64,000 nt of DNA from an uncultured delta proteobacterium (GTDB taxonomy: Bacteria; Desulfobacterota; Binatia; UBA9968). The stretch's first letter is position 1, and each line of letters starts with the position of its first letter. Shown in pieces: positions 3,345 to 52,611 of the stretch. Location of the stretch: assembly GCA_963816145.1 (NCBI GenBank), contig CAWFJP010000027.1:1-64000 (forward strand), read 5' to 3'. The notes below the pieces were generated by a model. That model did not search any database. It saw nothing but the letters and a program-made list of their open reading frames with translations, and had not been told where the DNA came from. A program made the position numbers and the translations under genes.

Positions 3345-3568
3345 GTCCCGTTGGGGAATAATCGAGATCCCTTGGCGCTTCGGCTTCGCTCAGGACGGGA
3401 TCTAGGCAAAGCGCAGATTTGTCATGCCGGCGCAGGCCGGCATCCATCTTCGTTATCGCTGCAAGGCCAAAGACAACCTGGATTCCGGCCTCCGCCGGAA
3501 TGACGGACGGGGAAGTCGACTTCCAGTCGACAAACTTATAACCACTCGGCTTAAAGCCGAGGGTCGTT
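3345..3568. mobile_element. Non-autonomous IS200/IS605-like (PATE-type) element carrying a GTCAT REP doublet; right end approximate
   Basis: Follows ATTAAT; left part homologous to 38393-38462; right hairpin CTCGGCTTAAAGCCGAG; internal GTCATGCCGGCGCAGGCCGGCATCCA...TGGATTCCGGCCTCCGCCGGAATGAC. Confidence 0.5.
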
Positions 3569-18580: not shown

Positions 18581-18605
18581 CGCGAAGATCTTGTTCACCA
18601 CGAAG

Positions 18606-18807
18606 TGTCCATGAGGTGACACTCGTCTAAAGAATTTGAAATTGCAGCCCAACCAGCACCACAGGGTTGCTCTCTTGATTCGTCATGCCGGCGAAGGCCG
18701 GCATCCAGGCGACGGAGGGGGGATGGATACCGGCTTTCGCCGGTATGACGGAAGCCTCATGCCAATACGTCGCCCAGATCGTACCTGCACATGCATTTTC
18801 TAAGGAG
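18606..18807. mobile_element. 202-bp IS110-like non-autonomous element (copy 1) inserted in a CACGAAG repeat
   Basis: Homologous to 26400-26589 and 29113-29312; splits CACCACGAAG|ACACGAAG; AG at both junctions; internal GTCAT doublet. Confidence 0.7.
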
Positions 18808-18882
18808 ACACGAAGCTCGGAGAAGTCATTATCGTAAATCTTCGTGTCCTTCGCGGTGAGAATTGAATTCTTCCCTGAAAAT

Positions 18883-18926
18883 ACCAAGGCCAAGAACGCC
18901 GCCTCTGCGGTGTTCTTGGCCTTGGT
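18883..18926. terminator. 20-bp-stem hairpin between convergent purF and SWIB genes, probable terminator
   Basis: ACCAAGGCCAAGAACGCCGC-CTCT-GCGGTGTTCTTGGCCTTGGT (one non-Watson-Crick pair). Confidence 0.6.
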
Positions 18927-18946
18927 CACTCGCAGGCGAGTAAAAG

Positions 18947-19234
18947 TTATTTTACGTGTTTGCTGACCAACTTGGTCATCTCGAACATGGTGACGGTTTT
19001 TTTGCCGCCGAAGACATCCTTCAACGCATCGTCGGCGTTGATGTTGGTTCTCTTCTTTTTGTCTTGCAAGCCGTTCTTCTTGATATACGCCCACAGCTTC
19101 TTGGTCACCTCGGTGCGCGGGATCGGTTTGCTGCCAACCACCAGGGCGAGCTTGGCGTCCGGCTGGACCGGTTTCATGAACGCCGCGTTGGGCTTTCTTT
19201 TCTTCTTCGCTGCTTTCTTTTTTGCTGCTGCCAT
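18947..19234 (-). CDS. Stand-alone SWIB/MDM2 domain protein
   Basis: RBS GGAGGA; NAAFMKPVQP..LA.VVG.KP.PRTEVTKKLWAYIKKNGLQD...MFEMTKLVSKH. Confidence 0.92.
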   Translation of the reverse strand: MAAAKKKAAKKKRKPNAAFMKPVQPDAKLALVVGSKPIPRTEVTKKLWAYIKKNGLQDKKKRTNINADDALKDVFGGKKTVTMFEMTKLVSKHVK

Positions 19235-19307
19235 TTTGTTTTCCTCCTTCAGGAAAATAATTAATTTCGTAGAGGTATAGCAGAGGAGCCCCGTATTTGC
19301 CAACGAA

Positions 19308-21041
19308 TTATTCAGTTTTTCCTCGTAAACGGGCGGTTTCTCCCTCGTGAAGGCAGGGCTCGCCGTCGAACATCTCGGCGGCGACGCCGTAGTCGGATTG
19401 GGCGCGGGCGACGGAAACATACCCCTGGCGCAAATCTTCGAGGACTTTTTCCACCGGCCGGTTTAAGGGATTGCCCAGGCCGCCGCCGCCGGGACGCTCG
19501 ACGCGGATGGTATCGTTGTGTCCGAGCCGGTGATCGCCGAAACGAGATGGGAGACGCTGTGCTGTGTTTGACTCGGGATTGATCAAGCAGGCACCTTTGC
19601 CGCCGGGCAGGCCGGCGCTGCTGCCGAAGGGTTCGATGGCGTGTTTGTCGGTGCGCATCGAGAAGCGCACGTCGTCGGCGAGTATTCGATACTCACGGAC
19701 AAAGCCCAAGCCGCCGCGCCACTCGCCGGCGCCGCCGGAGTCGGCGAGCATTTCGAAGCGCTCGACCCGGGTGGGAAACTCGGACTCGATGATCTCGATG
19801 GGGGCGGTTCTGCAGTTGCTCAGATGGAACGCGGTGGCCGACACGCCGTCCTTGCCGGCGCGGGCGCCGGTACCGCCACTGAAAATTTCGTAATGGACAT
19901 AGGCGCGGTTGCTCTGCGCGTCGCGGCCGCCGAGGACCAAGGCGGCGCTGCCGGAACCGCCGGCGATGCGCCGTTCGGGAACGAAGTGCGCCAGGGCACG
20001 CAGGATCGCTTCGGCGGCGGCCAGCGCCGTCGGCATATAAGTATTGACCGCGGCGGGAAAGCGCGGATCGACGACGCTGCCTTCGCGAAAGGTCGCGTCG
20101 ATGCAGCGGGCGAGGCCCTGGTTGATCGGCAGGAAACGATCGACCAAGGCGACCAGACAATAGGCGCAGGCGGCGCGCACTAGCGGCGGGCGGATGTTCG
20201 CCGGCCCCTGAGTCTGATCGCTCGATTCGCTGAAATCGAAGTGGAGCCGGTCGCCGGTCTTTTTCACTCTTACATGGATGCGAATCGGCTGGCTGAGATC
20301 GATGCCATCGTGGTCGACGAAGCTTTCGCCCTCGGACTCGCCGTCGGGCCAGGAGGCGATCGCCTGGCGCACACGGTTCTCGGTGTGGGCGGAGAGCAGC
20401 TCGGTGGACGCCAATATGACATCCTTGCCGTAGCGCTCCATCAGTTCGCTAATGCGCCGCTCGCCCAGCCGCGCCGCGCCGACCTGGCCGCGCAGGTCGC
20501 CGAGCACCAAGGCCGGGGTGCGGCTGTTGGCCGCGATCATGGCGTCGATCTCTTTGACCGGCTGGAGGCGCGCCATGAATTTTACCGGCGGCAGATGCAA
20601 GCCTTCCTGATAGATTTCCCGGGCGGTGCCGCTGCCGCTGCCGGGTACGGTGCCGCCGATGTCGCTCTTGTGCGCCATGTTGGCGGCGAAGCCGACCCAG
20701 TCACCGCGAAAAAAAATCGGCGTGAACACGCCCATGTCAGGCGCGTGCGGGCTGCCGCCGAGATAGGGATGGTTGGTGATGAAAGCGTCGCCGTCGTTGA
20801 TTTCGTCATTGGAAAAAGTTTTCAAAATCGCCGCGGCGCAGGCCGGGAAGGCGCCCATGTGAAGCGGCAAGACGACATGCTGGGCGATCACTTCGCCGCG
20901 GGCATTCAACACCGCGCAGCTGGCGTCCTGGGATTCTCTGATGATCGTCGAGTAGCCGGTGCGAAAGAGCGAATTCTGCATCTCCTGGACGATGCCGGCC
21001 AGGCGCGCTTGGATGACTTGCAGGGTGATGGGATCGACCAT
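19308..21041 (-). CDS. Hydantoinase B/oxoprolinase family protein (copy 2)
   Basis: DPITLQVI, RTGYSTIIRESQD, NHPYLGGSPHAPD, DSGGAGEWRGG, PGGGGLGNP. Confidence 0.95.
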   Translation of the reverse strand: MVDPITLQVIQARLAGIVQEMQNSLFRTGYSTIIRESQDASCAVLNARGEVIAQHVVLPLHMGAFPACAAAILKTFSNDEINDGDAFITNHPYLGGSPHAPDMGVFTPIFFRGDWVGFAANMAHKSDIGGTVPGSGSGTAREIYQEGLHLPPVKFMARLQPVKEIDAMIAANSRTPALVLGDLRGQVGAARLGERRISELMERYGKDVILASTELLSAHTENRVRQAIASWPDGESEGESFVDHDGIDLSQPIRIHVRVKKTGDRLHFDFSESSDQTQGPANIRPPLVRAACAYCLVALVDRFLPINQGLARCIDATFREGSVVDPRFPAAVNTYMPTALAAAEAILRALAHFVPERRIAGGSGSAALVLGGRDAQSNRAYVHYEIFSGGTGARAGKDGVSATAFHLSNCRTAPIEIIESEFPTRVERFEMLADSGGAGEWRGGLGFVREYRILADDVRFSMRTDKHAIEPFGSSAGLPGGKGACLINPESNTAQRLPSRFGDHRLGHNDTIRVERPGGGGLGNPLNRPVEKVLEDLRQGYVSVARAQSDYGVAAEMFDGEPCLHEGETARLRGKTE

Positions 21042-21045
21042 GGGT

Positions 21046-21138
21046 TAGGCAATAGGCACTAGGCAACAGGCAATAGTAGGAAAAGGACAACGCATAGATC
21101 GGATCTTTCTGTTGCCTATTGCCTATTGCCTAGTGCCT
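21046..21138. repeat. Inverted heptamer (AGGCAAT)n repeat
   Basis: TAGGCAATAGGCACTAGGCAACAGGCAATAG ... TGTTGCCTATTGCCTATTGCCTAGTGCCT. Confidence 0.85.
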
Positions 21139-22864
21139 GCGCGCGCAATTGCGCCGTCGCTGCTTGATTGACGAGGAAATCGTTACCCGCGCTGTCGATC
21201 GCCACGCGATAAACTTGTCGCGCGCGCTCCTGGGTTACATAGCCGTTACGCACGTCGTTGAGGACCCGTTCGGGGTCGCGTTCCAGGGGGTTGCCGAGAC
21301 CGCCGCCGCCAGGGGTGTCGAGGCAAAAAACTTCGCCGGGGTGGAGGACATGGTCGGAGAAGCGCGATGGGATGGCCCGTTCGCTTGGCGTGCCTGGGTT
21401 CAAGACGCAGTGGCCGGTCTTGCCGTCCATGCCGCCGTCGATGCCCTTCGGCGCGACGGTGTGTTTGGTCGAGCGCAAGGAAAAGCGCGCGTCGTTATCG
21501 AGCACCTCGTACTCCCGGACAAAGCCTAAACCACCGCGGAACTTGCCGGGACCGCCGGAGTCGGCGATGAGCTCGAACCGTTTCAAACGGGTGGCGAATT
21601 CCGACTCGATGATTTCGATGGGAGCGATCCTGGCGTTCGATTGATTGACATTCGTTCCCGACACGCCGTCTTTGCCGCTGCGCCCGCCCGAGCCGCCGCC
21701 GAAGATTTCGTACTGCACGTAGCCTTTGCCGGTCTTGTTGCTGCGGCCGCCGATGATGATCGAGCGGCTGCTGCAGCCGTCGCCGACTTTTTTGTGCGGT
21801 GTGATCTGGCTCGACGCTTCGAGGAGAGATTCGACCAGCGCGTGGACGGTCGGATTGTAGGTGTTGACCGGCGCCGGGAAGATCGGGTTGACCACGCTGC
21901 CGTCGCGCACTTTGATTTCGATGCAGCGAGCCAATCCGTAGTTGATCGCCAGCGCTGGGTCGACCAGGCAGGTCATGAGATAGGCGCAGGCGGCGCGCAC
22001 GATGGTCGGGCGAATATTCGCCGGTCCCTTGGTCTGGTCGGCGCTGCCGGTGAAATCGAAGAGCAGCCGGTCACCTTTTTTCTCCATGCGCACATGCAAT
22101 CTGACGGGCTTGTCGAGCTCGATGCCATCGCTGTCGACGAAGCGCTCGCCTTCGCCGACGCCGTCGGGCCAAGAGGCGATCTCGGCGCGGACTTTGGCTT
22201 CGGTCAAGGCGAACAGCTCTTCGAACGATTGCAGGATCGTCTCCTTGCCGTAGCGCTCGATCAATTCTTGAAAGCGCCGCTCGCCCAAGCGTGCCGCGCC
22301 AACCTGGCCGCGCAGGTCGCCGACGACGAGCTCCGGGGTGCGGCTATTGGCGCCGAGCATGGCTTCGATATCTTTGCTGGTTTGAAACTTGTGAACGTAT
22401 TTGATCGGCGGGACATGCAGTCCTTCTTGGTAAATTTCCCGCGCCTGGCTCCAACAGCTACCCGGCACCGGTCCGCCAATGTCGCTTTTGTGCGCCAAGT
22501 TGGCGGCGAAGCCGACCCACTCGCCGTGGAAAAAGATCGGCGACAGCACCGCCATGTCGGGAGCGTGGGGACTGCCGCCGAGATAGGGATGGTTGGTGAT
22601 GAAGGCGTCGCCTTCGTGGACTTCGTCGGGCGTATAGTTTTTCAATATACCCGCAGCGCAAGCGGGAAAGGCGCCCATGTGCAGCGGCAGCACGACATGT
22701 TGCGCGACGACTTCACCTTGGCGATTGAGCAGCGCACAGCTGGCGTCCTGGGACTCGCGAATAATCGTCGAATAGCCGGTGCGGAAGAGCGAATTCTGCA
22801 TCTCCTGGACGATGCCGGCCAGGCGCGCTTGGATGACTTGCAGGGTAACGGGATCGACAGTCAT
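21116..22864 (-). CDS. Hydantoinase B/oxoprolinase family protein (copy 1)
   Basis: Same motifs as 19308-21041; near-identical N-terminus. Confidence 0.95.
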   Translation of the reverse strand: MTVDPVTLQVIQARLAGIVQEMQNSLFRTGYSTIIRESQDASCALLNRQGEVVAQHVVLPLHMGAFPACAAGILKNYTPDEVHEGDAFITNHPYLGGSPHAPDMAVLSPIFFHGEWVGFAANLAHKSDIGGPVPGSCWSQAREIYQEGLHVPPIKYVHKFQTSKDIEAMLGANSRTPELVVGDLRGQVGAARLGERRFQELIERYGKETILQSFEELFALTEAKVRAEIASWPDGVGEGERFVDSDGIELDKPVRLHVRMEKKGDRLLFDFTGSADQTKGPANIRPTIVRAACAYLMTCLVDPALAINYGLARCIEIKVRDGSVVNPIFPAPVNTYNPTVHALVESLLEASSQITPHKKVGDGCSSRSIIIGGRSNKTGKGYVQYEIFGGGSGGRSGKDGVSGTNVNQSNARIAPIEIIESEFATRLKRFELIADSGGPGKFRGGLGFVREYEVLDNDARFSLRSTKHTVAPKGIDGGMDGKTGHCVLNPGTPSERAIPSRFSDHVLHPGEVFCLDTPGGGGLGNPLERDPERVLNDVRNGYVTQERARQVYRVAIDSAGNDFLVNQAATAQLRAQALGNRQ

Positions 22865-22871
22865 GAATTTT

Positions 22872-22946
22872 TAGGCAACAGGCAATAGGCAACAGGCAAT
22901 AGTAAGAAATCCGGATGTTCTACTATTGCCTATTGCCTGTTGCCTC
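22872..22946. repeat. Inverted heptamer (AGGCAAT)n repeat
   Basis: TAGGCAACAGGCAATAGGCAACAGGCAATAG ... CTATTGCCTATTGCCTGTTGCCT. Confidence 0.85.
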
Positions 22947-25015
22947 ATGCCTTCTCCCTTATGATGATATTCCGATAGCCATCCACCGTCGCTTCTTGCT
23001 CGGGTTGGATGACCGTGGTGGTGTCCAGCTGTTCGACGATCGCCGGGCCGGAGATGTTGTGGCCGGGCTCGAACAGGTCGCGGTTATACACCTGGGTGGT
23101 GAGTACGCCGTGTTCCTTGCCGAAGTAGACTTTGCGGTCGCTGAGTTTAGCCTCCTCAACTTTGCGGCCGGTGACTTTGCCGGGCGATAGTTTAGCCTGC
23201 GGCACCAAGCCCAGTGAAATCAGCCGCAGGCTTACCAGCTCAACCGGCTCGCTCTCGGCTTTGTGGCCGGAGTTCTGCTCGTGCATGGTGTCGAAGCGCT
23301 GGCGCATCATCAGCAAGTCATGTTTGGTCAGCGGCGGCATCGAGCAAGGAACCGTCAGTTCGTAGCCCTGGCCGGCATAGCGCAGATCGAGATAGGGTTC
23401 GATCTTGATCTCTTCGTCGGCGAAATCCTTCGCTCCGGAGATCGGCATTGGCGCGCTCGATCAACTGGTGAAACATATGATTGATCTCGGTCAAATCGAG
23501 ATCGTCGAGGCCGACCAGCTTCGAGCGCACATAGTCATGCTTCACATCCGACATCAGCAAGCCCAACGCCGAGTGCACACCGGGCGTGAGCGGCACGAGC
23601 ACGGACGGAATCCCCAGATCCAACGCCATTCGGCCGGCATGCATCGGCCCGCCGCCGCCGAAGGCGACGAGGGTAAAATCGCGGATATCGTAGCCGCGCG
23701 CCGACGAAACGGCTTTGATCGCTTCTTCCATCTTGGCGTCGATGATTTTCAAAACCCCATCGGCGGCTTCGAGGAGATCGAGCTTTAACGGTTTGGCGAG
23801 CTTTTCCTCCAAGACGCGTTGCGCTTTCTCCTTGTCGAGCTTCATGCGGCCGCCAAGGAAATGGTTCGGATCGAGGACGCCGCACACCATGTTGGCATCG
23901 GTAACCGTGATGTTTTCACCGCCGCGGTTGTAACACACCGGGCCGGGATCGGCGCCGGCGCTGTCCGGGCCCACTTGCAGGCCGCCGACGGCGTCGATGC
24001 GCGCGATGGTGCCGCCGCCCGCACTGACAGTATGAATGTCGAGCATCGGCAAGGCGATGGGGCGCAGGTTGATCTTGCCTTGCGTGGTGATCACCGGATT
24101 GCCCTGATGAATCAGCGCGACATCGCAGCTGGTGCCGCCCATGTCGAAGGTGATGATGTTGTTGATGCCGACCCGCTCGCAGGTGCCCATGGACGCGATG
24201 ACGCCGCCGGCGGGGCCGGAAAGCACGGTCGCCACCGGTTTTTCCGCCGAACCTTTGAAGGTCGATACGCCGCCGTTGGACTGCATGATGTAGAGCTTCG
24301 GCGTGGTTACGCCCATTTCGCGCATGCGGTTTTCCAGGCGGCCCAGGTAACTGGCCATGACCGGCTGAATATAGGCGTTGATCACCGTGGTGCTCAGACG
24401 GTAGAACTCGCGGATCTGCGGCAACACTTCATAGGACAGCGACAGCCGCGCCTCGGGAAATTCTTCGGCGAAGAGTTCTTTGATTTTAAGTTCGTGGTCG
24501 GGATTCAAAAACGAAAACAAACAGCACACCGCCACCGACTGCACGCCTTTATTCTTGAGCCGGCGGATCGCCTGGCGCGAAGCTTCGACGTCAATCGCTT
24601 TGAGCGCATTGCCCTTGAAATCGACGCGCTCGGGAATCTCTTCGGTCAAATAGGGCGGCGCGAGCAAGCGCGGCTTCTCGAAGAACAGATCGTAGGTCGC
24701 CGGGCCGTAGCCGCGGGTCTGCTCCATGACTTCGTAAATGCCGCGGAAACCCTGGGTCACCATCAAGCCGGTCTTGGCGCCCTTCTCCTCGAGCAGCGCA
24801 TTGGTGCCGACGGTGGTGCCGTGGCAAAAAAACGAAATATCGCCGGCCGCGACGCCTTGATCGATTAGTTCTTTGACGCCGTTCAAGACCGCTTGAAACG
24901 GTTCCTTCGGTGTGGACGGAACTTTAGTGATGGTAATTTCGCCCGTGTCTTCGTTGAAGAAAACGAAATCGGAAAAAGTTCCCCCGGTGTCGACGGTAAC
25001 TCGGTACTTGGACAT
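22945..25015 (-). CDS. Hydantoinase A/oxoprolinase family protein with a +1 frameshift at ~23423-23425
   Basis: VDTGGTFSD, SGPAGGV, DMGGTSCD, AFGGGG in 23318-25015 and DLRYAGQGYEL, GPAIVEQLDTTTVI in 22945-23448. Removing one A of AAA restores SEGFADEEIKIE (689 aa). Confidence 0.9.
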
Positions 25016-25267
25016 AGTCCGTTCCGTCTACCATGTAATTTTCGCGCCTTCAATCGACGCTGTAATGTCGCAATTGCCGCCGCTTGAAACGTCGATGCCA
25101 ACGGTGCGATGCAGGGCATTGGGAACTGATTGACAGGTCGAACGAACTGGCATTACAAGCGGTATGAGAAATCGATGCATCATAAATAGCTGGCGATGAT
25201 GCCCCCACCTGTGTCCTCCGCCGACCCGGGGGAGGATGAAAGAGGGGGACACGCAGAGGAGAATTGA

Positions 25268-26350
25268 ATGGAGATCATCGACGCTGACGGCCATGTGAAT
25301 GATATCGCCGATCAAGAGGCGATCGCCAAGTATATGCCGGCGGGCAACCGCTCGTCGCAAATCTTTCCGGTGCTCGATCATCTGCATTTCAACTATCTGC
25401 GCCCGGAAGGGAATCGCGTCGCTTTGGAAAATCCCGGTCCAAGGGAATGGGTGCAATTCCTCGATCAAACCGGGATATCCTGCAGCGTGCTTTATCCCAC
25501 CTTCGGCCTCGCCGTCGGCCGCTTTGTCGCCGAGCATTGGGCGATCGCCGCTTGCCGCGCTTACAACACTTGGCTCTACGAAAAATTCACCAGTAAGAGC
25601 CCGCGGCTCAAAGGCATGGCGTTGTTGCCAATCCAGGATGTCGAAGCGGCGGTAGCCGAGCTGCACCACGCTGTCAAGGAGTGCGGCATGTTGGGCGGCA
25701 TGTTGCCGTCCAACGGGGAAGGAATCAAAGACCACCTTGGCGCCAAGGTGTACTGGCCGATCTATGAAGAAGCCGAGAAGCTCGGTTGTGCCCTGGCGGT
25801 GCATGTCGGTTCGCTGCACCATCTCGGCATGGATGGATTTAGCACCTACTACCCGGTGCATGCCCTCGGCCATCCGTTTGGCATTGCCATCCAAGCGGCG
25901 GGCTTGTTGGCCCATGGCATTTTTGAACGCTTCCCGAAGATCCGCGTGGCCTTTCTCGAAGGCGGCTCGACTTGGGTGCCGTTTTTTCTCGATCGCCTCG
26001 ACCGGTCGTATCACCCAAGCCATCTTCAAGTGGACTTGGACAATCAGCTCGTTGGTGGCCCCAAGGCCGGTGAGAAGGCGAGCGACTATATGCGTCGGCA
26101 GATGCGCGACGGCAGGATGTACGTCGGCTTTGACGTCGATGACGAGGGTCTGGGGTTCGCCGTGGAGAAGGCTGGGAGGGAAGCGTTCGTTTTCGGCAGT
26201 GACTTTCCTCATGAGGTGTTCAACGCCGAGAAATGCCGCCATGAGATTGATCAGTTGCTCGCGCGCGGCGATTTGAACGACACCGACAAAGCGGCTGTGC
26301 TGGGTGGCAATGCGCGGCGATTCTATGGCTTGGACACGAATAGCAGGTAG
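25268..26350 (+). CDS. Amidohydrolase_2 family protein
   Basis: IIDADGH, VLYPT, CRAYNTWL, FLEGG, FGSDFPH. Confidence 0.92.
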   Translation: MEIIDADGHVNDIADQEAIAKYMPAGNRSSQIFPVLDHLHFNYLRPEGNRVALENPGPREWVQFLDQTGISCSVLYPTFGLAVGRFVAEHWAIAACRAYNTWLYEKFTSKSPRLKGMALLPIQDVEAAVAELHHAVKECGMLGGMLPSNGEGIKDHLGAKVYWPIYEEAEKLGCALAVHVGSLHHLGMDGFSTYYPVHALGHPFGIAIQAAGLLAHGIFERFPKIRVAFLEGGSTWVPFFLDRLDRSYHPSHLQVDLDNQLVGGPKAGEKASDYMRRQMRDGRMYVGFDVDDEGLGFAVEKAGREAFVFGSDFPHEVFNAEKCRHEIDQLLARGDLNDTDKAAVLGGNARRFYGLDTNSR

Positions 26351-26399
26351 ATTGTTTGCGTTTTCAACGCGTCGTTGAGGATCTTTTTCCACCACGAAG

Positions 26400-26589
26400 T
26401 GATTCATGAGCTTACGCTCGTCCACAGAGTATGAAATTGCAGCCTCCCTGCACGCCGCCCGATTCGTCATGCCGGCGAAGGCCGGCATCCAGGGGCGGGA
26501 GGGGATGGATACCGGCTTTCGCCGGTATGACGGAACCTTCGTGCCAAGTCGTCGCCCGGATCATACCTGCACATGTATTTTCGATGGAG
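26400..26589. mobile_element. 190-bp IS110-like non-autonomous element (copy 2) inserted in a CACGAAG repeat
   Basis: Splits CACCACGAAG|GACACGAAAATCACGAAG; homologous to copies 1 and 3. Confidence 0.7.
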
Positions 26590-26734
26590 GACACGAAAAT
26601 CACGAAGGTCGGAGAGTTCTTCGTCCGCGCCCTCCGACATCCTCTCCCTTGACGGGAGAGCATTGAGGTGAGGGTGCTGATAAAAATCGATAGCGCGCGA
26701 AGCACAACCAATCTCTGAGTGGAGCAAAATTACG

Positions 26735-28192
26735 ATGAACAAAGAACAGCGCATGGAAGCAGCTTTCGATCTGCGGAAGTTCATTGACCAGGTCCGCTCC
26801 GACGGCGAACTCGAAGAAATTGCCGGTGCCCATTGGAATCTTGAGATCGGCGCGCTGACGGAATTGTTTGCCGAGCAGGTCTCGACGCCGGCGCTGCTCT
26901 TCGATGAGATCCCCGATTATCCCAAAGGTTTGCGTGTGTTGAGCAATGTGTTGTACTCGCCGCGGCGCCAGGCGCTGGCGCTGGGGGTGGCGCCGGAGCA
27001 GCGCGGCATTCCTCTTGTCCTGGAGATTAAACGGCGATTGGCGGAAATGAAGCCGCTGCCGCCGAGCGAAGTAAAAAGCGCGCCGGTGTTGCAGAACATG
27101 TTGGCGGGCAGCGCCGTTGACATCGGCAAATTTCCCGCGCCCCAGTGGCATGAAAAAGACGGCGGGCGATACATCGGCACATTCGACGCGGTGATCGCGC
27201 GCGATCCGGACAGCGGTTACGTCAATGTCGGCACCTATCGTGTCCAAATGCACGATCAAAATACCGTCGGACTGTGGATGATCCCCGGCAAGCACGGCAA
27301 TTTGATCGCGCAAAAATATTGGAGCCAAGGGAAAGACTGCCCGTTTCTGATCGCCTGCGGCGTGCCGCCATCGATGTTGCTCGCCAGCTCTCTCGGCATC
27401 CCCTGGGGCGTCTGCGAGTACGATTTTCTCGGCGGTTTGCTCGGCGAACCGGTGCTGGTGGTGACGTCTGAACTGACCGGCCTGCCGATGCCGGCCAATG
27501 CTGAAATCGTATTAGAAGGGTTTGCGCCGCCGCCGGAAAAGGTTTCCCACCCCGAAGGGCCGTTCGGCGAATGGCCCGGGTATTACGCGTCTGGCACGAT
27601 TGACCGGCCGGTGGTGAAAATTTCCGCGATCTATCATCGTGACGATCCGATCATCACCGGCGATCCGCCGCTGAAGACCTATCTCAACACAGATATGTAC
27701 AAGTACGTCCGGGCGGCCAACATCTGGTCTTCCATGGAGCGTGCCGGGATTCCCGATGTTCGCGGCGTCTGGTTCCCGCGCCAGGGACGCTTCGTCGTTA
27801 CCGTGGCGATACGCCAGCGCTATGCGGGCCACGCGCGCCAGGTTGGCCATGGCGTGCTGGCAACGCGGGACGGCGGACGCGACACGCGCTTAATCATCGT
27901 GGTCGACGAAGATATCGACATCACCAATTTCAACGAAGTGATGTGGGCGGTGGCGACGCGCTGGGACCCCAGGCGACAGTCGGAAATCGTCAGCGTGCCC
28001 GCTAGCGACCTGAATCCGACGCTGACGGCGGCGGAGCGCGCCGCTGGGGAGATGGTGAGCTCTTGCCAAATCATCGACGCCTGCCGGCCGTTTGCCAGCA
28101 AGGACCAATTCCCTGAAGTGAGCGGGGTGAGCCCGGAGTATAAGGCGAAGATCTTACAGCAGTGGGGCCATTTGTTTGGCAAAAAAGCGTGA
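26735..28192 (+). CDS. UbiD family prFMN-dependent (de)carboxylase
   Basis: DGGRYIGT, NVGTYRVQ, EGPFGEWPGYY, IVVDEDIDI, WAVATRWDP. Confidence 0.93.
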   Translation: MNKEQRMEAAFDLRKFIDQVRSDGELEEIAGAHWNLEIGALTELFAEQVSTPALLFDEIPDYPKGLRVLSNVLYSPRRQALALGVAPEQRGIPLVLEIKRRLAEMKPLPPSEVKSAPVLQNMLAGSAVDIGKFPAPQWHEKDGGRYIGTFDAVIARDPDSGYVNVGTYRVQMHDQNTVGLWMIPGKHGNLIAQKYWSQGKDCPFLIACGVPPSMLLASSLGIPWGVCEYDFLGGLLGEPVLVVTSELTGLPMPANAEIVLEGFAPPPEKVSHPEGPFGEWPGYYASGTIDRPVVKISAIYHRDDPIITGDPPLKTYLNTDMYKYVRAANIWSSMERAGIPDVRGVWFPRQGRFVVTVAIRQRYAGHARQVGHGVLATRDGGRDTRLIIVVDEDIDITNFNEVMWAVATRWDPRRQSEIVSVPASDLNPTLTAAERAAGEMVSSCQIIDACRPFASKDQFPEVSGVSPEYKAKILQQWGHLFGKKA

Positions 28193-28197
28193 GAGAG

Positions 28198-28270
28198 GAG
28201 ATCTCTCACTTCGTTCGAGATGACAGAAACGCATTCTTCCGTTGTCATTTCGAGCGCGGCGAGAAATCTC
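28198..28270. repeat. REP doublet of the same type as the 4927-5061 MITE cargo
   Basis: AGATCTCTCACTTCGTTCGAGATGACA ... TGTCATTTCGAGCGCGGCGAGAAATCT. Confidence 0.8.
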
Positions 28271-28319
28271 TCCGGTGTTTAGGTTAGTGAGTTGCACTAC
28301 AGATGAAAGGACTTGAACC

Positions 28320-29039
28320 ATGCTTACCAAAGAAGATGTCTTACAGGCGGTTGCCGAGTCGTGGTGGGAAGCCAAGCCGAAGATCATCGAGTTCGTCAAT
28401 CATCATCTCACCAAAGACGGGACGAGGATCTTTACGCCGGAGCATACCTACTTTGCGGCGCATTTCCCGCGCTGGTTCGGCAACGTCATCGCCAATTGCC
28501 CGGACCTCGGCCCGCGCTCCTACATGATCAGCAATATCTACGTTGAAGAAGTCGACGATCCGACGATTCACGACACCCATCATGGCAGCATGGTGACCTT
28601 CGGCGAGGGCTTGGGCATGACGCGCGAGGAAGTGCTCGGTCATGTGCCGAGCATACCGATGCGCATGGGCATCCACTACTGGGACAACATGAGCCGCACC
28701 CGGCCTTGGCTCGAAGGTTTCGCCGCGGTTGGCTCGTTGGAGCTGACCAATCACGGCGCGCTGGCGGCGCGCTACGGCGAGGTGGCGTTGAACGCGCGCA
28801 AGAAATGGGAACCGCTGGGACTCGATGGCAAATACTTGGTTCATTGGGAGGCGGCGGATGCCGCTGATCCAGGAGAGGGCGGTCATGCCGACCAGACTGT
28901 GCGCATACTCGCTCAGTACGCCAAGAGCGATGAAGAAGGCCGGCGCGTGCTCGAAGTTGTGCGCGAGAGCATCAGCGTGTTTCGCTTCATCTACGATCAC
29001 ATCGCCGAGCGGGCGATCGCCGCGGGAAAAACGCGGTGA
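28320..29039 (+). CDS. Heme-oxygenase-like (PqqC/TenA/CADD superfamily) iron-containing redox enzyme
   Basis: FPRWFGNVIANCPD, NIYVEE...H, FGEGLGMTREE, WLEGFAAVGSLE. Confidence 0.75.
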   Translation: MLTKEDVLQAVAESWWEAKPKIIEFVNHHLTKDGTRIFTPEHTYFAAHFPRWFGNVIANCPDLGPRSYMISNIYVEEVDDPTIHDTHHGSMVTFGEGLGMTREEVLGHVPSIPMRMGIHYWDNMSRTRPWLEGFAAVGSLELTNHGALAARYGEVALNARKKWEPLGLDGKYLVHWEAADAADPGEGGHADQTVRILAQYAKSDEEGRRVLEVVRESISVFRFIYDHIAERAIAAGKTR

Positions 29040-29112
29040 GCGGCGCTTTTGCCAAAAATAGGTGGATTGACTGATGCCGGCTCACAGGGAGATGATTTCA
29101 TTCACCACGAAG

Positions 29113-29312
29113 TGTTCATGAACTTACGCTCGCCTACAAAGTATGAAACTGCGGCCTCCCCTGCACCGCATGGCTCCTCCCTTGATTCGTCATGCCGACG
29201 CAGGCCGGCATCCAGGGGAGGTAGGGGATGGATACCGGCTTTCGCCGGTATGACGGAAACCCTATGTCAATTCGTCGCTGAGATCTTACTTGCACATCTG
29301 TTTTCTAAGGAG
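29113..29312. mobile_element. 200-bp IS110-like non-autonomous element (copy 3) inserted in a CACGAAG repeat
   Basis: Splits CACCACGAAG|GCACGAAGATCACGAAG; homologous to copies 1 and 2. Confidence 0.7.
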
Positions 29313-29407
29313 GCACGAAGATCACGAAGGAAAGAGAATCATTTTTTCCAAACTTCGTGTCCTTCGTGGTGCGCGTGAACCTAAAACGAAATGGTATCGT
29401 TGCAGCG

Positions 29408-32144: not shown

Positions 32145-32276
32145 GAGACTGTGTCGCAACTGTCATTTCGAGGTGAAGCCGAGAAATCTCTTCTTCGTAT
32201 GTGGCTGAAAACACGAGATCCCTCGCTGCGCTCGGGATGACAAATGTGGGGCATTTGCGCATTACGACACAGCCGC
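32145..32276. mobile_element. ~132-bp MITE (IS5/IS1182-like ends) inserted in the loop of a CCCCCGCG REP hairpin
   Basis: Ends AGACTGTGTCGCAA/TTACGACACAGCC; short flanking duplication (GCT); near-identical inverted copy at 52480-52611. Confidence 0.85.
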
Positions 32277-35752: not shown

Positions 35753-35830
35753 CACCACGAAGGCACGAAGGACACGAAGATTTCGGATATATAATTTCTT
35801 CCCTTCGTGCTCTTCGTGTCCTTCGTGGTG
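35753..35830. repeat. Uninterrupted CACGAAG inverted repeat (further copies 37155-37234, 41224-41303)
   Basis: CACCACGAAGGCACGAAGGACACGAAG ... CTTCGTGCTCTTCGTGTCCTTCGTGGTG. Confidence 0.85.
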
Positions 35831-37125: not shown

Positions 37126-37265
37126 TCGGCCGCAAAGTTCAGATAGGGATGATTCACCACGAAGGACACGAAGATCACGAAGTTCGGAATATCAATTGTC
37201 CGAAACCTTCGTGTCCTTCGTGCACTTCGTGGTGAAAAAATGAAGTGTTTCCAACAGGAGAACTT

Positions 37266-39951: not shown

Positions 39952-40078
39952 GTTCAAATCGTTCAAAACGTTCAAATCGCTCAAACCCCCACCTCTTTCC
40001 TCCCCCGCGACGCGGGGGAGGATGAAGGAGGGGGCTTGAGCGGAGCGCAGCGGTTGAACGGCTGGAACGTTTTGAACG
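39952..40078. repeat. Inverted GTTCAA nonamer repeat enclosing a CCCCCGCG REP (related: 17107-17125, 44686-44843, 48107-48150, 63747-63778)
   Basis: GTTCAAATCGTTCAAAACGTTCAAATCGCTCAA ... TTGAACGGCTGGAACGTTTTGAAC. Confidence 0.8.
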
Positions 40079-41117: not shown

Positions 41118-41422
41118 ACTGCCTCCACAATATCGTTGTGAGTTTTTGTCGCACGCGCCGCGCCGAGTTGTCAATTGAAAGTTGCCAATCGACTCGCGAC
41201 GCTTTGATGTGAGAAGCGGATCTCACCACGAAGGGCACGAAGACCACGAAGTTCGGAAATATTGGATATCCGATCCCTTCGTGTCCTTCGTGCCTTCGTG
41301 GTGTAAGAGTCATTGTCATTTCGCGGTTGCTGCTCGTTATGCCAAATGTGCCGCCGGTCCTCGGATTTCGAACACTACTCATGGACTTCTCTCGATGCGT
41401 GCGTTAACCTTATGAGTTCGAA

Positions 41423-48009: not shown

Positions 48010-48166
48010 GAATTTCGGATTGTCTCCCGCAAAGGCGCCAAGGCGCAAAGTTCGGACCTACCATTCCTTCCTCCCCCGCGACGCGGGGGAGGACCGAGGA
48101 GGGGGCTTGAACGGAGCGTCAGCGGTTGAACGGCTGGAACGATTGGAACGGAAGTTAGGGGAGATC

Positions 48167-52479: not shown

Positions 52480-52611
52480 GAGGCTGTGTCGTAATGCGCA
52501 AATGCCCCACATCTGTCATCCCGAGCGCAGCGAGGGATCTCGTGTTTTCAGCCGCATACGAAGAAGAGATTTCTCGGCTTCACCTCGAAATGACAGTTGC
52601 GACACAGTCTG
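52480..52611. mobile_element. ~132-bp MITE, inverted copy of 32145-32276
   Basis: Two internal mismatches relative to copy 1; flanked by a TGC duplication. Confidence 0.85.

Follow-up and report, generated by a model that had tools for sequence, protein, structure and literature searches.

We conclude that the three short inserts in CACGAAG repeats of the window (the whole 64,000-nt stretch analysed here) are non-autonomous miniature derivatives of a bridge-RNA-guided insertion sequence (IS) of the IS110 family, probably moved in trans; we put the probability of this reading at about 0.88. The initial annotation had proposed a non-autonomous IS110 derivative, and that proposal is now supported by an IS110-family element of the same genus that has the same ends and occupies the same position in the repeat.

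Three inserts occupy one position of a palindromic repeat

Each of the three homologous inserts begins directly after CACCACGAAG and ends in GGAG, and their coordinates and junctions proved to be exactly those first annotated (Table 1). The 3' ends read ..AAGGAG, ..ATGGAG and ..AAGGAG (copies 1, 2 and 3) and are followed by A/GA/G and CACGAA(G/A). Alignment of the three gave a mean column identity of 83%, and the left-end motif occurred exactly 3 times in the window, compared with 0.08 expected. Removing an insert regenerates a repeat of the intact type, CACCACGAAG-(A/GA/G)-CACGAAG, while the host repeats differ among the three copies in their loops and spacers. Terminal inverted repeats are absent, and the junction is ambiguous only by the AG common to the flank (..GAAG) and the insert end (..GGAG); on all these points the initial annotation was right. 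In place of the terminal inverted repeats and target-site duplication that strictly define a MITE, the inserts have just a subterminal GAAAT/ATTTTC pair besides the AG core, and "MITE" is applied to this element, which has no inverted termini, in the loose sense used for MITEPpu9.

Table 1. Positions of the inserts, their modules and the host repeats in the window
Feature	Position	Strand	Remarks
Host repeat 1, left-arm outer heptamer CACCACGAAG	18596-18605	+	left target half and AG core
Miniature element copy 1, 202 bp	18606-18807	+	downstream of purF-like gene; orthologous empty site in G003, G019, G022
Host repeat 1 remainder: (a)CACGAAG, loop, CTTCGTGTCCTTCGCGGTG	18808-18858	.	opposite arm is an unoccupied target
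Host repeat 2, outer heptamer CACCACGAAG	26390-26399	+	
Miniature element copy 2, 190 bp	26400-26589	+	between amidohydrolase and UbiD-like genes
Host repeat 2 remainder: GACACGAAAATCACGAAG and decayed right arm	26590-26625	.	
Host repeat 3, outer heptamer CACCACGAAG	29103-29112	+	
Miniature element copy 3, 200 bp	29113-29312	+	downstream of TenA/PqqC-like gene
Host repeat 3 remainder: GCACGAAGATCACGAAG, loop, CTTCGTGTCCTTCGTGGTG	29313-29371	.	opposite arm is an unoccupied target
Left-end module common to autonomous IS (copy 3)	29113-29152	+	29/34 identical to IS left end; kept in distant IS relatives
Left-end module, copies 1 and 2	18606-18645, 26400-26439	+	equivalents of 29113-29152
Nested double-hairpin palindrome, REPIN-like, inside element (copy 3)	29186-29258	.	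elements without the palindrome exist in G009
Nested double-hairpin palindrome, copies 1 and 2	18679-18753, 26463-26535	.	equivalents of 29186-29258
Right-end module common to IS, GTTTTCTAAGGAG (copy 3)	29300-29312	+	12/12 identical
Right-end module, copies 1 and 2	18795-18807, 26577-26589	+	equivalents of 29300-29312
Intact unoccupied CACGAAG palindromic repeat	35753-35830	.	3 + 3 heptamers
Intact unoccupied CACGAAG palindromic repeat	37155-37234	.	3 + 3 heptamers
Intact unoccupied CACGAAG palindromic repeat	41224-41303	.	3 + 3 heptamers

CACGAAG is itself abundant, with 35 occurrences in the window compared with 10.7 +/- 3.2 in shuffled sequence, and 394 unoccupied sites of the same form as the target are present genome-wide. 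The occupied repeats are symmetric palindromes broken in one arm (heptamers 1 + 2 on the left, up to 3 on the right), and insertion is seen only after the outermost of three identical heptamers. We take both the host repeat and the nested double hairpin within the inserts to be REP/REPIN-like palindromes that fill intergenic gaps.

An empty site was recovered for copy 1. Three related genomes (G003, G019 and G022) lack the 202 bp there: after the gene to the left of copy 1 they have ..gttcaaCACGAAGg(a/g)CACGAAG.. or a closely similar sequence. Copies 2 and 3 gave no clean empty/filled pair in the relatives, because the intergenic regions there are rearranged or have no repeat. These observations bear on the view that repeat and insert form a single unit, namely a longer form of the palindromic repeat that spreads by the repeat's own mechanism, with the short repeats as its deletion derivatives or the reverse. 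Such co-spreading would explain why every copy is embedded in a repeat, and would also be expected to give the copies in CACAGAG-type repeats (see below) a sequence subgroup of their own. It is at odds with the interruption of symmetric palindromes in a single arm, with loops and spacers that vary from copy to copy (the CACAGAG subgroup included), with the orthologous repeat arm that has no insert, and with the full IS that has the same ends at the same position. We regard it as largely refuted and very improbable.

Neither a circle junction nor a tandem joint of right end to left end was found in the window's genome; head-to-tail junctions of this kind are present at locus L117, where a miniature element adjoins the IS, and at Dehalococcoidia loci. 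Among contigs of public sequencing runs (4 of 24 compared), one each in X1 and X2 joins position 29110 to 29311, skipping exactly 200 bp; the two runs are possibly one data set, since their tables are near-identical. We rejected this joint as evidence of excision: its shorter side consists of just 27 nt of repeat sequence, so that the contig may stem from any intact repeat elsewhere.

A complete IS110-family element has the same ends

The partner scan covered 28 IS110 loci of the genus (30 less two unpublished loci of genome G005). At 2 of the 28 (L086 and L102), the left end of the element lies ~240 nt upstream of a transposase gene, on the same strand. The complete IS, at locus L086/L115 on contig C456 of genome G009, is 1,537 bp long (..ttcacCACGAAG/TGTGTCATGAGCTTACGCTCG...ATTTTCGAAGGAG/gaCACGAAGagCACGAAG) and consists of a 242-nt left end, a gene for a 421-aa DEDD recombinase and a 29-nt right end. 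A long non-coding left end with a short right end is the layout of the IS110 group (PMC11208160) and not that of IS1111. The transposase matched the Pfam families DEDD_Tnp_IS110 (PF01548, 1.3e-32) and Transposase_20 (PF02371, 2.7e-18), as well as the IS621 transposase chain 8wt6_A (E 4.5e-11).

The same left and right ends are borne by L086/L115 and ten more loci, whose transposases are 76-100% identical. The upstream flank at these IS loci is ..CCACGAAG in 10 of 11 and ..CTACGGAG in the other, and a further heptamer follows the right end at 7 of the 11; insertion of the IS is thus specific in both sequence and orientation. Like the miniature element, the IS has no terminal inverted repeats: its ends, TG(T/A)..CATGA and ..TTTTCGAAGGAG, share AG alone with the flank junction, and any target duplication is no longer than these two bases. 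This shared AG fits an IS110-type core dinucleotide, and an AG dinucleotide is likewise described for ISPpu9 (PMC12288879). The first ~37 bases (29/34 identical) and the last 12 bases are common to IS and element. That the IS had instead entered a different element and thereby acquired these ends is unlikely, because distant IS relatives in other phyla have the same end architecture.

A DEDD recombinase gene between the same ends, for which the initial annotation had suggested a search, is thus present in relatives and absent from the window's own genome (G000; 99.5% complete, 31 contigs), in which no autonomous copy was found. The only clear IS110 gene in that genome, on contig C13, encodes a protein 33-37% identical and has unrelated ends, and is not the partner. 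A start resembling the left end on contig C24 runs into ordinary genes; the guide-bearing left-end pattern gave a single hit (C1:10718), a chance match within a coding region; and a search for left and right ends 230-6000 bp apart returned one pair, also a chance match.

The transposase between the shared ends also weighs on a different assignment, in which the insert is either a hairpin-ended derivative of an IS200/IS605 element (PATE) or a REPIN mobilised by a Y1 HUH transposase or RAYT, and enters single-stranded DNA on the 3' side of a short target, for example GAAG. Inserts that have no inverted termini or target duplication, follow a fixed sequence and contain a small hairpin 7 nt inside the left end would suit this mechanism, and Y1 genes are present in the genome (3 IS200-like, 3 longer). 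However, the 6 clear (over cut-off) Y1 loci have neither the ends of the element nor CACGAAG repeats beside them; these loci bear end hairpins of their own, unrelated to the element, whose ends flank a DEDD transposase instead. A Y1 enzyme would moreover need a recognition sequence of more than 4-5 nt, because, of three identical heptamers, just the outermost precedes an insert. We consider mobilisation by a Y1 enzyme extremely improbable.

Guide-like stretches in the IS's left end

Within the 242-nt left end are two guide-like stretches with the same sequence as parts of the target and of the IS. One corresponds to the left target flank and core (CACGAAG-UG) and the other to the right IS end and core (CGAAGGAG), and across distant relatives these stretches vary with target and donor at homologous positions, as expected of bridge-RNA guides. 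We compared the left flank with the interior of the left end by an anchor-free longest-common-substring search in 14 IS copies or lineages, the hosts of which include Dehalococcoidia, Limnochordaceae, Maioricimonas, Paenibacillus and Alicyclobacillus. In 12 of the 14, a conserved GAGCCCG directly preceded the longest match in the same sense (8-12 nt); mismatched pairings averaged 5.9. For the right end (left donor), the match lay directly after GAGCACG in 7 of 14, and also in L127, against a weak control in which mismatched pairings averaged 7.2 and reached 11.

Covariation is seen in the stems that flank the guides: the stem that closes the target loop has 66 of 75 cells paired, and AU is swapped with GC and UA with CG. 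Within their loops, both long guides are on the 3' side. No consistent complementary segments that could serve as the short right-target and right-donor guides (RTG and RDG) were found in the IS left ends. Judged by its sequence and covariation, the structured left-end RNA is a candidate bridge RNA.

The miniature element retains the ends and not the guides

At 190-202 bp, the miniature element has no room for a transposase gene, and its homology to the IS is limited to the ends; alignment of the interiors scored 18, compared with 15.8 +/- 2.3 for shuffled sequences. The left-end module contains TG.. as right-donor bases, together with a 5' hairpin (GAAC-TTAC-GCTC type); its ATGAAA(C/T) forms the left half of the subterminal inverted repeat. 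The right-end module contains the ATTTTC half of that repeat, the left donor and the AG core. Between them, the nested double hairpin is an independent repeat family and no part of the IS, and in some copies the interior is replaced by other modules. The predicted fold of the element consists of the nested palindrome and the small 5' hairpin only, with no convincing pairing between left and right ends. Rfam gave no match in the window at the gathering threshold and none at two IS loci (E <= 1).

It had been suggested that the conserved ends hold donor sites or bridge-RNA remnants. The ends are indeed kept, as ~40 nt on the left with the 5' hairpin and 12-13 nt on the right; the guide-bearing part is absent. 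The target-matching CTTCGTG near the end of copy 2 is no guide: this heptamer falls outside the parts that element and IS have in common, and it stays unchanged (no CTCTGTG) in copies within CACAGAG-type repeats.

The family is large, old and spread through the genus

The 7.8-Mb genome of the window contains 57 copies with the left end, 49 of which also have the right end. When the 9-mer preceding each insert was compared with ACCAC(GAAG/AGAG), 0, 1, 2 and 3 mismatches were found in 35, 14, 7 and 1 copies; at most one mismatch was thus seen in 49/57 preceding 9-mers, compared with 25/80,639 random genome 9-mers. Of the 49 copies that have a right end, 39 are followed by another heptamer within 4 nt. 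Beyond this genome, the left-end motif is present in 22 of 31 genomes of the genus. The IS-bearing G009 also has ~93-bp elements at the same repeat position that are barely more than two IS ends.

Median pairwise identity among the copies of the window's genome is 0.78, and a single pair reaches at least 0.97, as the result of a segmental duplication; by this divergence the copies are old. With no partner IS and copies ~78% identical, the family in this genome looks like an orphaned fossil, the IS having been lost or never assembled. About 8 copies lie in CACAGAG-type repeats and form their own sequence subgroup. These repeats mismatch the known guide at two core-adjacent positions, and our searches recovered no IS whose guide reads CACAGAG. 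It is possible, and we suggest only tentatively, that the genus-wide orphan swarm, with its CACAGAG subgroup, preserves in nature the traces of mobilisation in trans and of guides retargeted from one repeat subfamily to another.

Persistence of the family across the genus despite a rare IS raises the question of whether the element, besides being or having been mobile, has been retained for a host function, as an RNA structure in 3' UTRs or a small RNA; a host role has been proposed for Ssr9 in MITEPpu9 (PMC12288879). Each of the three copies in the window is sense-oriented and closely follows a gene on the + strand, and the interior double hairpin is conserved. Genome-wide, the upstream neighbour has the same orientation as the element in 27 cases and the opposite in 30 (from naive ORF calling, an unreliable measure), which, together with the missing Rfam match and the exchange of the interior for other modules in some copies, makes retention for the host unlikely.

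Discussion

In the model that we propose, the insertion point of the IS has CACCACGA-AG on one side and G(N)CACGAAG on the other and falls within the outermost heptamer of the palindromic REP-like repeat, with AG as the probable crossover core. The miniature element retains the cis-acting parts only, namely ~40 nt at its start and 12-13 nt at its end. These comprise the two halves, GAAAT and ATTTTC, of the subterminal inverted repeat as well as the donor bases on either side of the AG core. Between its ends the element has acquired unrelated sequence, such as the nested double-hairpin repeat. The inserts have neither the gene nor the two guide stretches, and would therefore have been moved in trans, with a full-length IS supplying recombinase and bridge RNA for excision, presumably as a circle, and for insertion.

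This kind of element is already known, but the present family is large and extends genus-wide. The closest precedent is MITEPpu9 with its partner ISPpu9, of the IS110 group, in Pseudomonas putida KT2440 (Pares-Guillen et al. 2025, PMC12288879). As described there, MITEPpu9 is likewise a gene-less module bounded by the left and right end boxes of the IS itself, lies within REP/BIME palindromes, recombines at AG at both ends, is presumed to be mobilised in trans by the IS110-family transposase and also occurs in tandem with the IS. It is reported in 8 copies in one strain lineage, whereas our family has 57 copies in a single genome and its left-end motif is present in 22/31 genomes of a genus; MITEPpu9 carries the sRNA gene ssr9, whereas the interior of our element is a nested palindromic repeat with no known sRNA; and the host repeat here is made of tandem heptamers. 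REP/REPIN-RAYT systems and BIMEs resemble the host repeat and the nested double hairpin, but these REP-like repeats act here as target and passenger and are not the mobile unit under study, and no RAYT association was found.

The IS itself resembles IS621 of E. coli as described by Durrant et al. (2024, PMC11208160): both have a DEDD recombinase of the same Pfam families and a long left and short right end without inverted termini; both target REP sequences and use a core of 2 nt; and in both the left-end RNA has stretches that match left target plus core and left donor plus core, each with covariation. They differ in the core (AG here, CT in IS621), in the length of the transposase (421 aa, compared with 328 aa for the solved chain 8wt6_A) and in the placement of the long guides, which are on the 5' side of the loops in IS621. 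ISPpu10 of P. putida is also an IS110 element with all insertions in one stem-loop-forming intergenic repeat, for which target structure was proposed as an additional layer of specificity; its abstract describes no miniature derivative of the kind found here (bioRxiv 10.64898/2026.03.19.712850).

Our analysis indicates that an IS with a bridge recombinase can give rise to a large family of passengers that have neither gene nor guides. Passengers with ~40 and 13 terminal bases offer a natural estimate of the minimal requirements in cis for donor recognition, and the family provides dozens of natural donor and target variants in which guide mismatches can be read directly. It accounts for part of the nested intergenic repeat structure in these uncultured soil and wetland bacteria. 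The left-end RNA of the IS, readily alignable across several phyla, is a candidate for studies of variation in bridge-RNA architecture.

Three inserts at one position of a heptamer repeat

Re-reading of the sequence at all three sites bore out the positions and junctions that the initial annotation had claimed for three gene-less inserts of ~200 bp, each lying within a palindromic intergenic repeat built of CACGAAG heptamers. The inserts lack inverted termini, as had been claimed, and AG, the last two bases of flank (GAAG) and insert (GGAG) alike, is indeed the only sequence by which the junction can shift. The three copies align with a mean column identity of 83%. Their left-end motif occurs exactly 3 times in the window (0.08 expected), and the CACGAAG heptamer 35 times, compared with 10.7 +/- 3.2 in shuffled sequences.

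Coordinates of the inserts and of associated repeats and genes (window positions unless a genome and contig are given; G000, the window's own genome; G003, a genome of the same genus)
Feature	Location	Remarks
Insert copy 1	18606-18807	follows CACCACGAAG, ends GGAG, then rest of CACGAAG palindrome
Insert copy 2	26400-26589	follows CACCACGAAG, ends GGAG, then rest of CACGAAG palindrome
Insert copy 3	29113-29312	follows CACCACGAAG, ends GGAG, then rest of CACGAAG palindrome
Unoccupied palindromes	35753-35830, 37155-37234, 41224-41303	three heptamers per arm
~70-bp REPIN-like double-hairpin palindrome	3421-3490; in inserts 18679-18753, 26463-26535, 29186-29258	CATGCCGGC..GCCGGCATC / GATACCGGC..GCCGGTATG
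~131-bp repeat	32145-32274, 52480-52610
~75-bp palindromic repeat	39952-40069, 48069-48141
Synteny breakpoint at copy 1 site	18596-19300
Alternative module after CACCACGAAG	G000 C2:186587, C4:22720, C9:37153, C31:222569, others; G003 L069
Near-identical copy pair	G000 C14:233208-233405, C22:4068-4265
IS200-like Y1 genes	G000 C29:53351-53707, C16:103640-103993, C14:561347-561700	own end hairpins

A 12.4-kb stretch was searched against 31 genomes of the genus and the matching intergenic regions were compared. Downstream (3') of a purF-like gene, the repeat arm of three relatives (G003, G019 and G022) reads ..gttcaaCACGAAGg(a/g)CACGAAG.. or very nearly so, and the 202 bp of copy 1 are absent. This comparison argues for an inserted element rather than a long form of the repeat. 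Because the relatives show rearrangement to the right of this site, the empty/filled pair is clean only at the left; for copies 2 and 3 the same search gave no clean pair, as their sites are too rearranged. Synteny also breaks at the copy 1 site: in every relative examined, the purF-like gene to its left and the hydantoinase cluster to its right are on separate contigs or distant from each other.

An old, multicopy family with a composite interior

We searched the whole of the window's genome (7.82 Mb, 31 contigs) with a loose left-end core and found 57 copies of the element; in 49 of them a right end could be recognised at a distance of 180-222 bp. Immediately before the insert, the 9-mer matched ACCAC(GAAG/AGAG) with 0, 1, 2 and 3 mismatches in 35, 14, 7 and 1 copies, respectively; by comparison, only 25 of 80,639 sampled genomic 9-mers had one mismatch or fewer. 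A further heptamer began within 4 nt of the right end in 39 of the 49 complete copies. The target form, ACCAC(GAAG/AGAG) plus the next heptamer, is present at 394 sites when both strands are counted, such that roughly one target in 8 is occupied. A repeat that holds an insert is a symmetric palindrome broken in a single arm, with a loop that varies between copies, and ~8 copies, forming a sequence subgroup of their own, sit in a sister repeat built of CACAGAG.

The copies in this genome are old: their pairwise identity has a median of 0.78 (5-95%: 0.60-0.88), and the sole pair at or above 0.97 lies on C14 and C22. Its two members have flanks that are identical over 100 bp or more to either side, reflecting either segmental duplication or contig redundancy of the assembly.

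The insert is a composite. Its first ~45 nt and last ~14 nt are conserved in all copies, and the central ~70 bp form a REPIN-type double hairpin, TTCGTCATGCCGGCGAAGGCCGGCATCCAGG...GGATACCGGCTTTCGCCGGTATGACGGAA, which some copies replace with a different interior module. Outside the element, the genome contains ~98 short matches to the first hairpin and 40 to the second; the double-hairpin palindrome is an independent repeat family. A long form of ~145 bp exists, and the depth summed over this repeat in metagenome contigs from soil and wetland reaches ~16,000, against ~10 on its flanks.

Other repeats share the window. The ~131-bp repeat has ~70 genome copies at 90-100% identity and is far younger than the miniature IS110 elements, while the ~75-bp family numbers dozens of copies genome-wide. 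In ~10 places CACCACGAAG precedes another module, GAC.TAGCGCGGCAGAGCCGCAAC..TTCGGAATATCTC..CGCAAAG x3, which combines two types of heptamer repeat; this module fills the site orthologous to window copy 2 in G003.

An autonomous IS110 partner with the same ends

The initial annotation had proposed a search for a DEDD recombinase gene of the IS110 family between the same ends. Such a gene was found in a related genome, G009, and not in the window's own, where the one clear IS110 gene (contig C13; 33-37% identical to the partner) has ends unrelated to the insert and was rejected. Y1/HUH transposase loci were also rejected as partners, having neither the insert ends nor flanking CACGAAG repeats; two of the three IS200-like Y1 genes in the genome are 85% identical over 651 bp.

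A Pfam PF01548 search of the 31 genus genomes returned 30 loci, of which 28 were scanned for the insert ends (two from the unpublished genome G005 were omitted) and 2 matched. One of these, L086 (G009:C456), is complete. It reads ..ttttcacCACGAAG / TGTGTCATGAGCTTACGCTCGTCCACAGAAGATGAAAATGG.. at the left junction and ..CCAAATTTTCGAAGGAG / gaCACGAAGagCACGAAG at the right, and occupies the same position of the same repeat as the inserts. Its 1,537 bp comprise a non-coding left end of 242 nt, an ORF of 421 aa and a right end of 29 nt. Both domains typical of IS110 are present in the ORF, which also matched the sequence of the IS621 transposase structure (E 4.5e-11). The insert consensus resembles this IS at the ends only (left 29/34, right 12/12 identical); the search for interior homology gave a best score of 18, versus 15.8 +/- 2.3 in shuffles.

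A scan of species-representative genomes yielded 79 loci, and we analysed the 11 with transposases 76-100% identical to the partner's, all from MAGs labelled Candidatus Binatia, delta proteobacterium and similar. The left flank was ..CCACGAAG in 10 and ..CTACGGAG in 1. Beyond the right end, a further heptamer followed at 7 of the 11, a miniature element lay head-to-tail at one (L117), the heptamer was absent at 1, and 2 were cut or unreadable. At the same repeat position, G009 also carries elements of ~93 bp with little beyond the two IS ends, others of ~230-250 bp that contain a nested palindrome, and a left-end footprint of 30 bp (L205, G009:C470).

In L205 the IS left end stops after 30 nt, at CACAGAG, and is joined straight to the next CACGAAG, which looks as if recombination had occurred at an internal AG. 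The IS-miniature junction of L117 (a Binatia-labelled MAG) and the IS-IS tandems (RE/LE) of L125/L128 on a Dehalococcoidia chromosome resemble junctions of donor type that have become fixed chromosomally.

Guide stretches in the left end

No Rfam model matched the partner IS. A five-copy relative on the Dehalococcoidia chromosome (57% identity) differs in both its target (..GTTCGGAAT) and its right end (..GTAGCAAT). Retained in its left end are the 5' hairpin, ATGAAAATGGG, GAGCCCG, ATTGTCGCC and GAGCACG. The bases after GAGCCCG equal the left flank (GUUCGGAAU in Dehalococcoidia, CACGAAG(UG) in the partner), and those after GAGCACG equal the right end (GUAGCAAU and CGAAGGAG, respectively). By eye, the same two correspondences were seen in Limnochordaceae, Maioricimonas, Paenibacillus, Alicyclobacillus, Thermomicrobiales and others. 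The target in Maioricimonas sp. (Planctomycetota; locus L136, IS relative 50% identical) is again a heptamer repeat, CACGGAG (..CCACGGAGTT / .. / ACACGGAGGTG), and heptamer-repeat targets thus recur in a distant phylum.

An anchor-free comparison took the longest same-sense match between a 40-nt left-flank window and the left-end interior in 14 cases. In 12 of these the match was 8-12 nt long and directly followed the GAGCCCG-type anchor; of the remaining two, one was a tandem copy and the other had its flank cut short where the contig ended. Pairing flanks and left ends of different lineages gave a mean of 5.9 and a maximum of 10, the maximum arising from A-rich targets common to lineages. 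A right-end match after the GAGCACG-type anchor was found in 7 of the 14 and in a further locus, L127, against a weak control (mismatched pairs: mean 7.2, maximum 11). In a 15-sequence alignment, 66 of 75 cells of the target-loop closing stem were paired, with AU/GC and UA/CG exchanges; the donor-loop closing stem, in an imperfect alignment, had several pair types and 93 of 135 cells paired. G-U pairs were consistent with the sense strand.

The available text of Durrant et al. (PMC11208160) describes, for IS621, guides of 8-9 nt matching the top strand and located on each loop's 5' side. In the partner, unlike in IS621, each guide appears to follow the terminal hairpin of its loop, on the 3' side. 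According to the same text, bridge-RNA structures vary across the family, so this placement may be known variation. Short right-hand guides were looked for in the partner left-end RNA and not found.

What the miniature element keeps

In these ISs, ATTTTC lies 7-9 nt from the tip of every right end and GAAAAT ~35 nt in from the tip of the left ends. The pair is a subterminal inverted repeat, of a kind mentioned for the family in the available text of Durrant et al. (PMC11208160). The miniature element retains both halves (ATGAAAT.. and ATTTTC), together with the 5' hairpin and the donor bases that adjoin the AG core, and these retained IS parts account for its conserved ends. Neither GAGCCCG nor GAGCACG is present in it, nor is either guide stretch. 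The initial annotation had suggested that the ends may hold donor sites or bridge-RNA remnants; they keep donor bases but not the guide-bearing part of the RNA. The CTTCGTG near the end of copy 2, offered earlier as a target match, is not within the region shared with the IS, and it does not change in step with the CACAGAG repeats.

With the guides absent, both recombinase and RNA must come in trans, and we infer that the full-length IS would mobilise the miniature elements. Current mobility, a circular intermediate and the exact crossover are putative parts of this scheme. One contig in each of two public runs skips exactly the 200 bp of copy 3; the shorter side of these contigs is only 27 nt of repeat, so they may derive from any intact repeat, and the runs, whose tables are near-identical, may be one data set.

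Distribution and relation to known systems

A 24-nt left-end motif (up to 3 mismatches) was present in 22 of the 31 genus genomes including G005 (21 of 30 without it), with 49 hits in the window's genome, 38 in G019, 36 in G022 and 17 in G009; the reversed motif gave 0 hits. The guide-bearing left-end pattern was confined to G005 and two of the other 29 published genomes, G009 and G024. Its single match in the window's genome, inside a coding region, was dismissed as chance. MAG assembly often loses multi-copy ISs, and absence of the IS is therefore not proven.

IS110-family elements that target REP sequences are well known, among them IS621 (PMC11208160), ISPpu9 (PMC12288879) and ISPpu10 (bioRxiv 10.64898/2026.03.19.712850). 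The present element does not appear in the available portions of the literature we found on non-autonomous IS110 elements or MITEs. A precedent is MITEPpu9, a registered gene-less module with IS end boxes, an AG core and insertion into REPs, listed with 8 copies in the accessible part of PMC12288879, as compared with 57 copies in one genome here. On that precedent, our element is of an already described kind and not a new type; its novelty lies in the host group and the scale, in its being an orphan in this genome, and in its nested structure.
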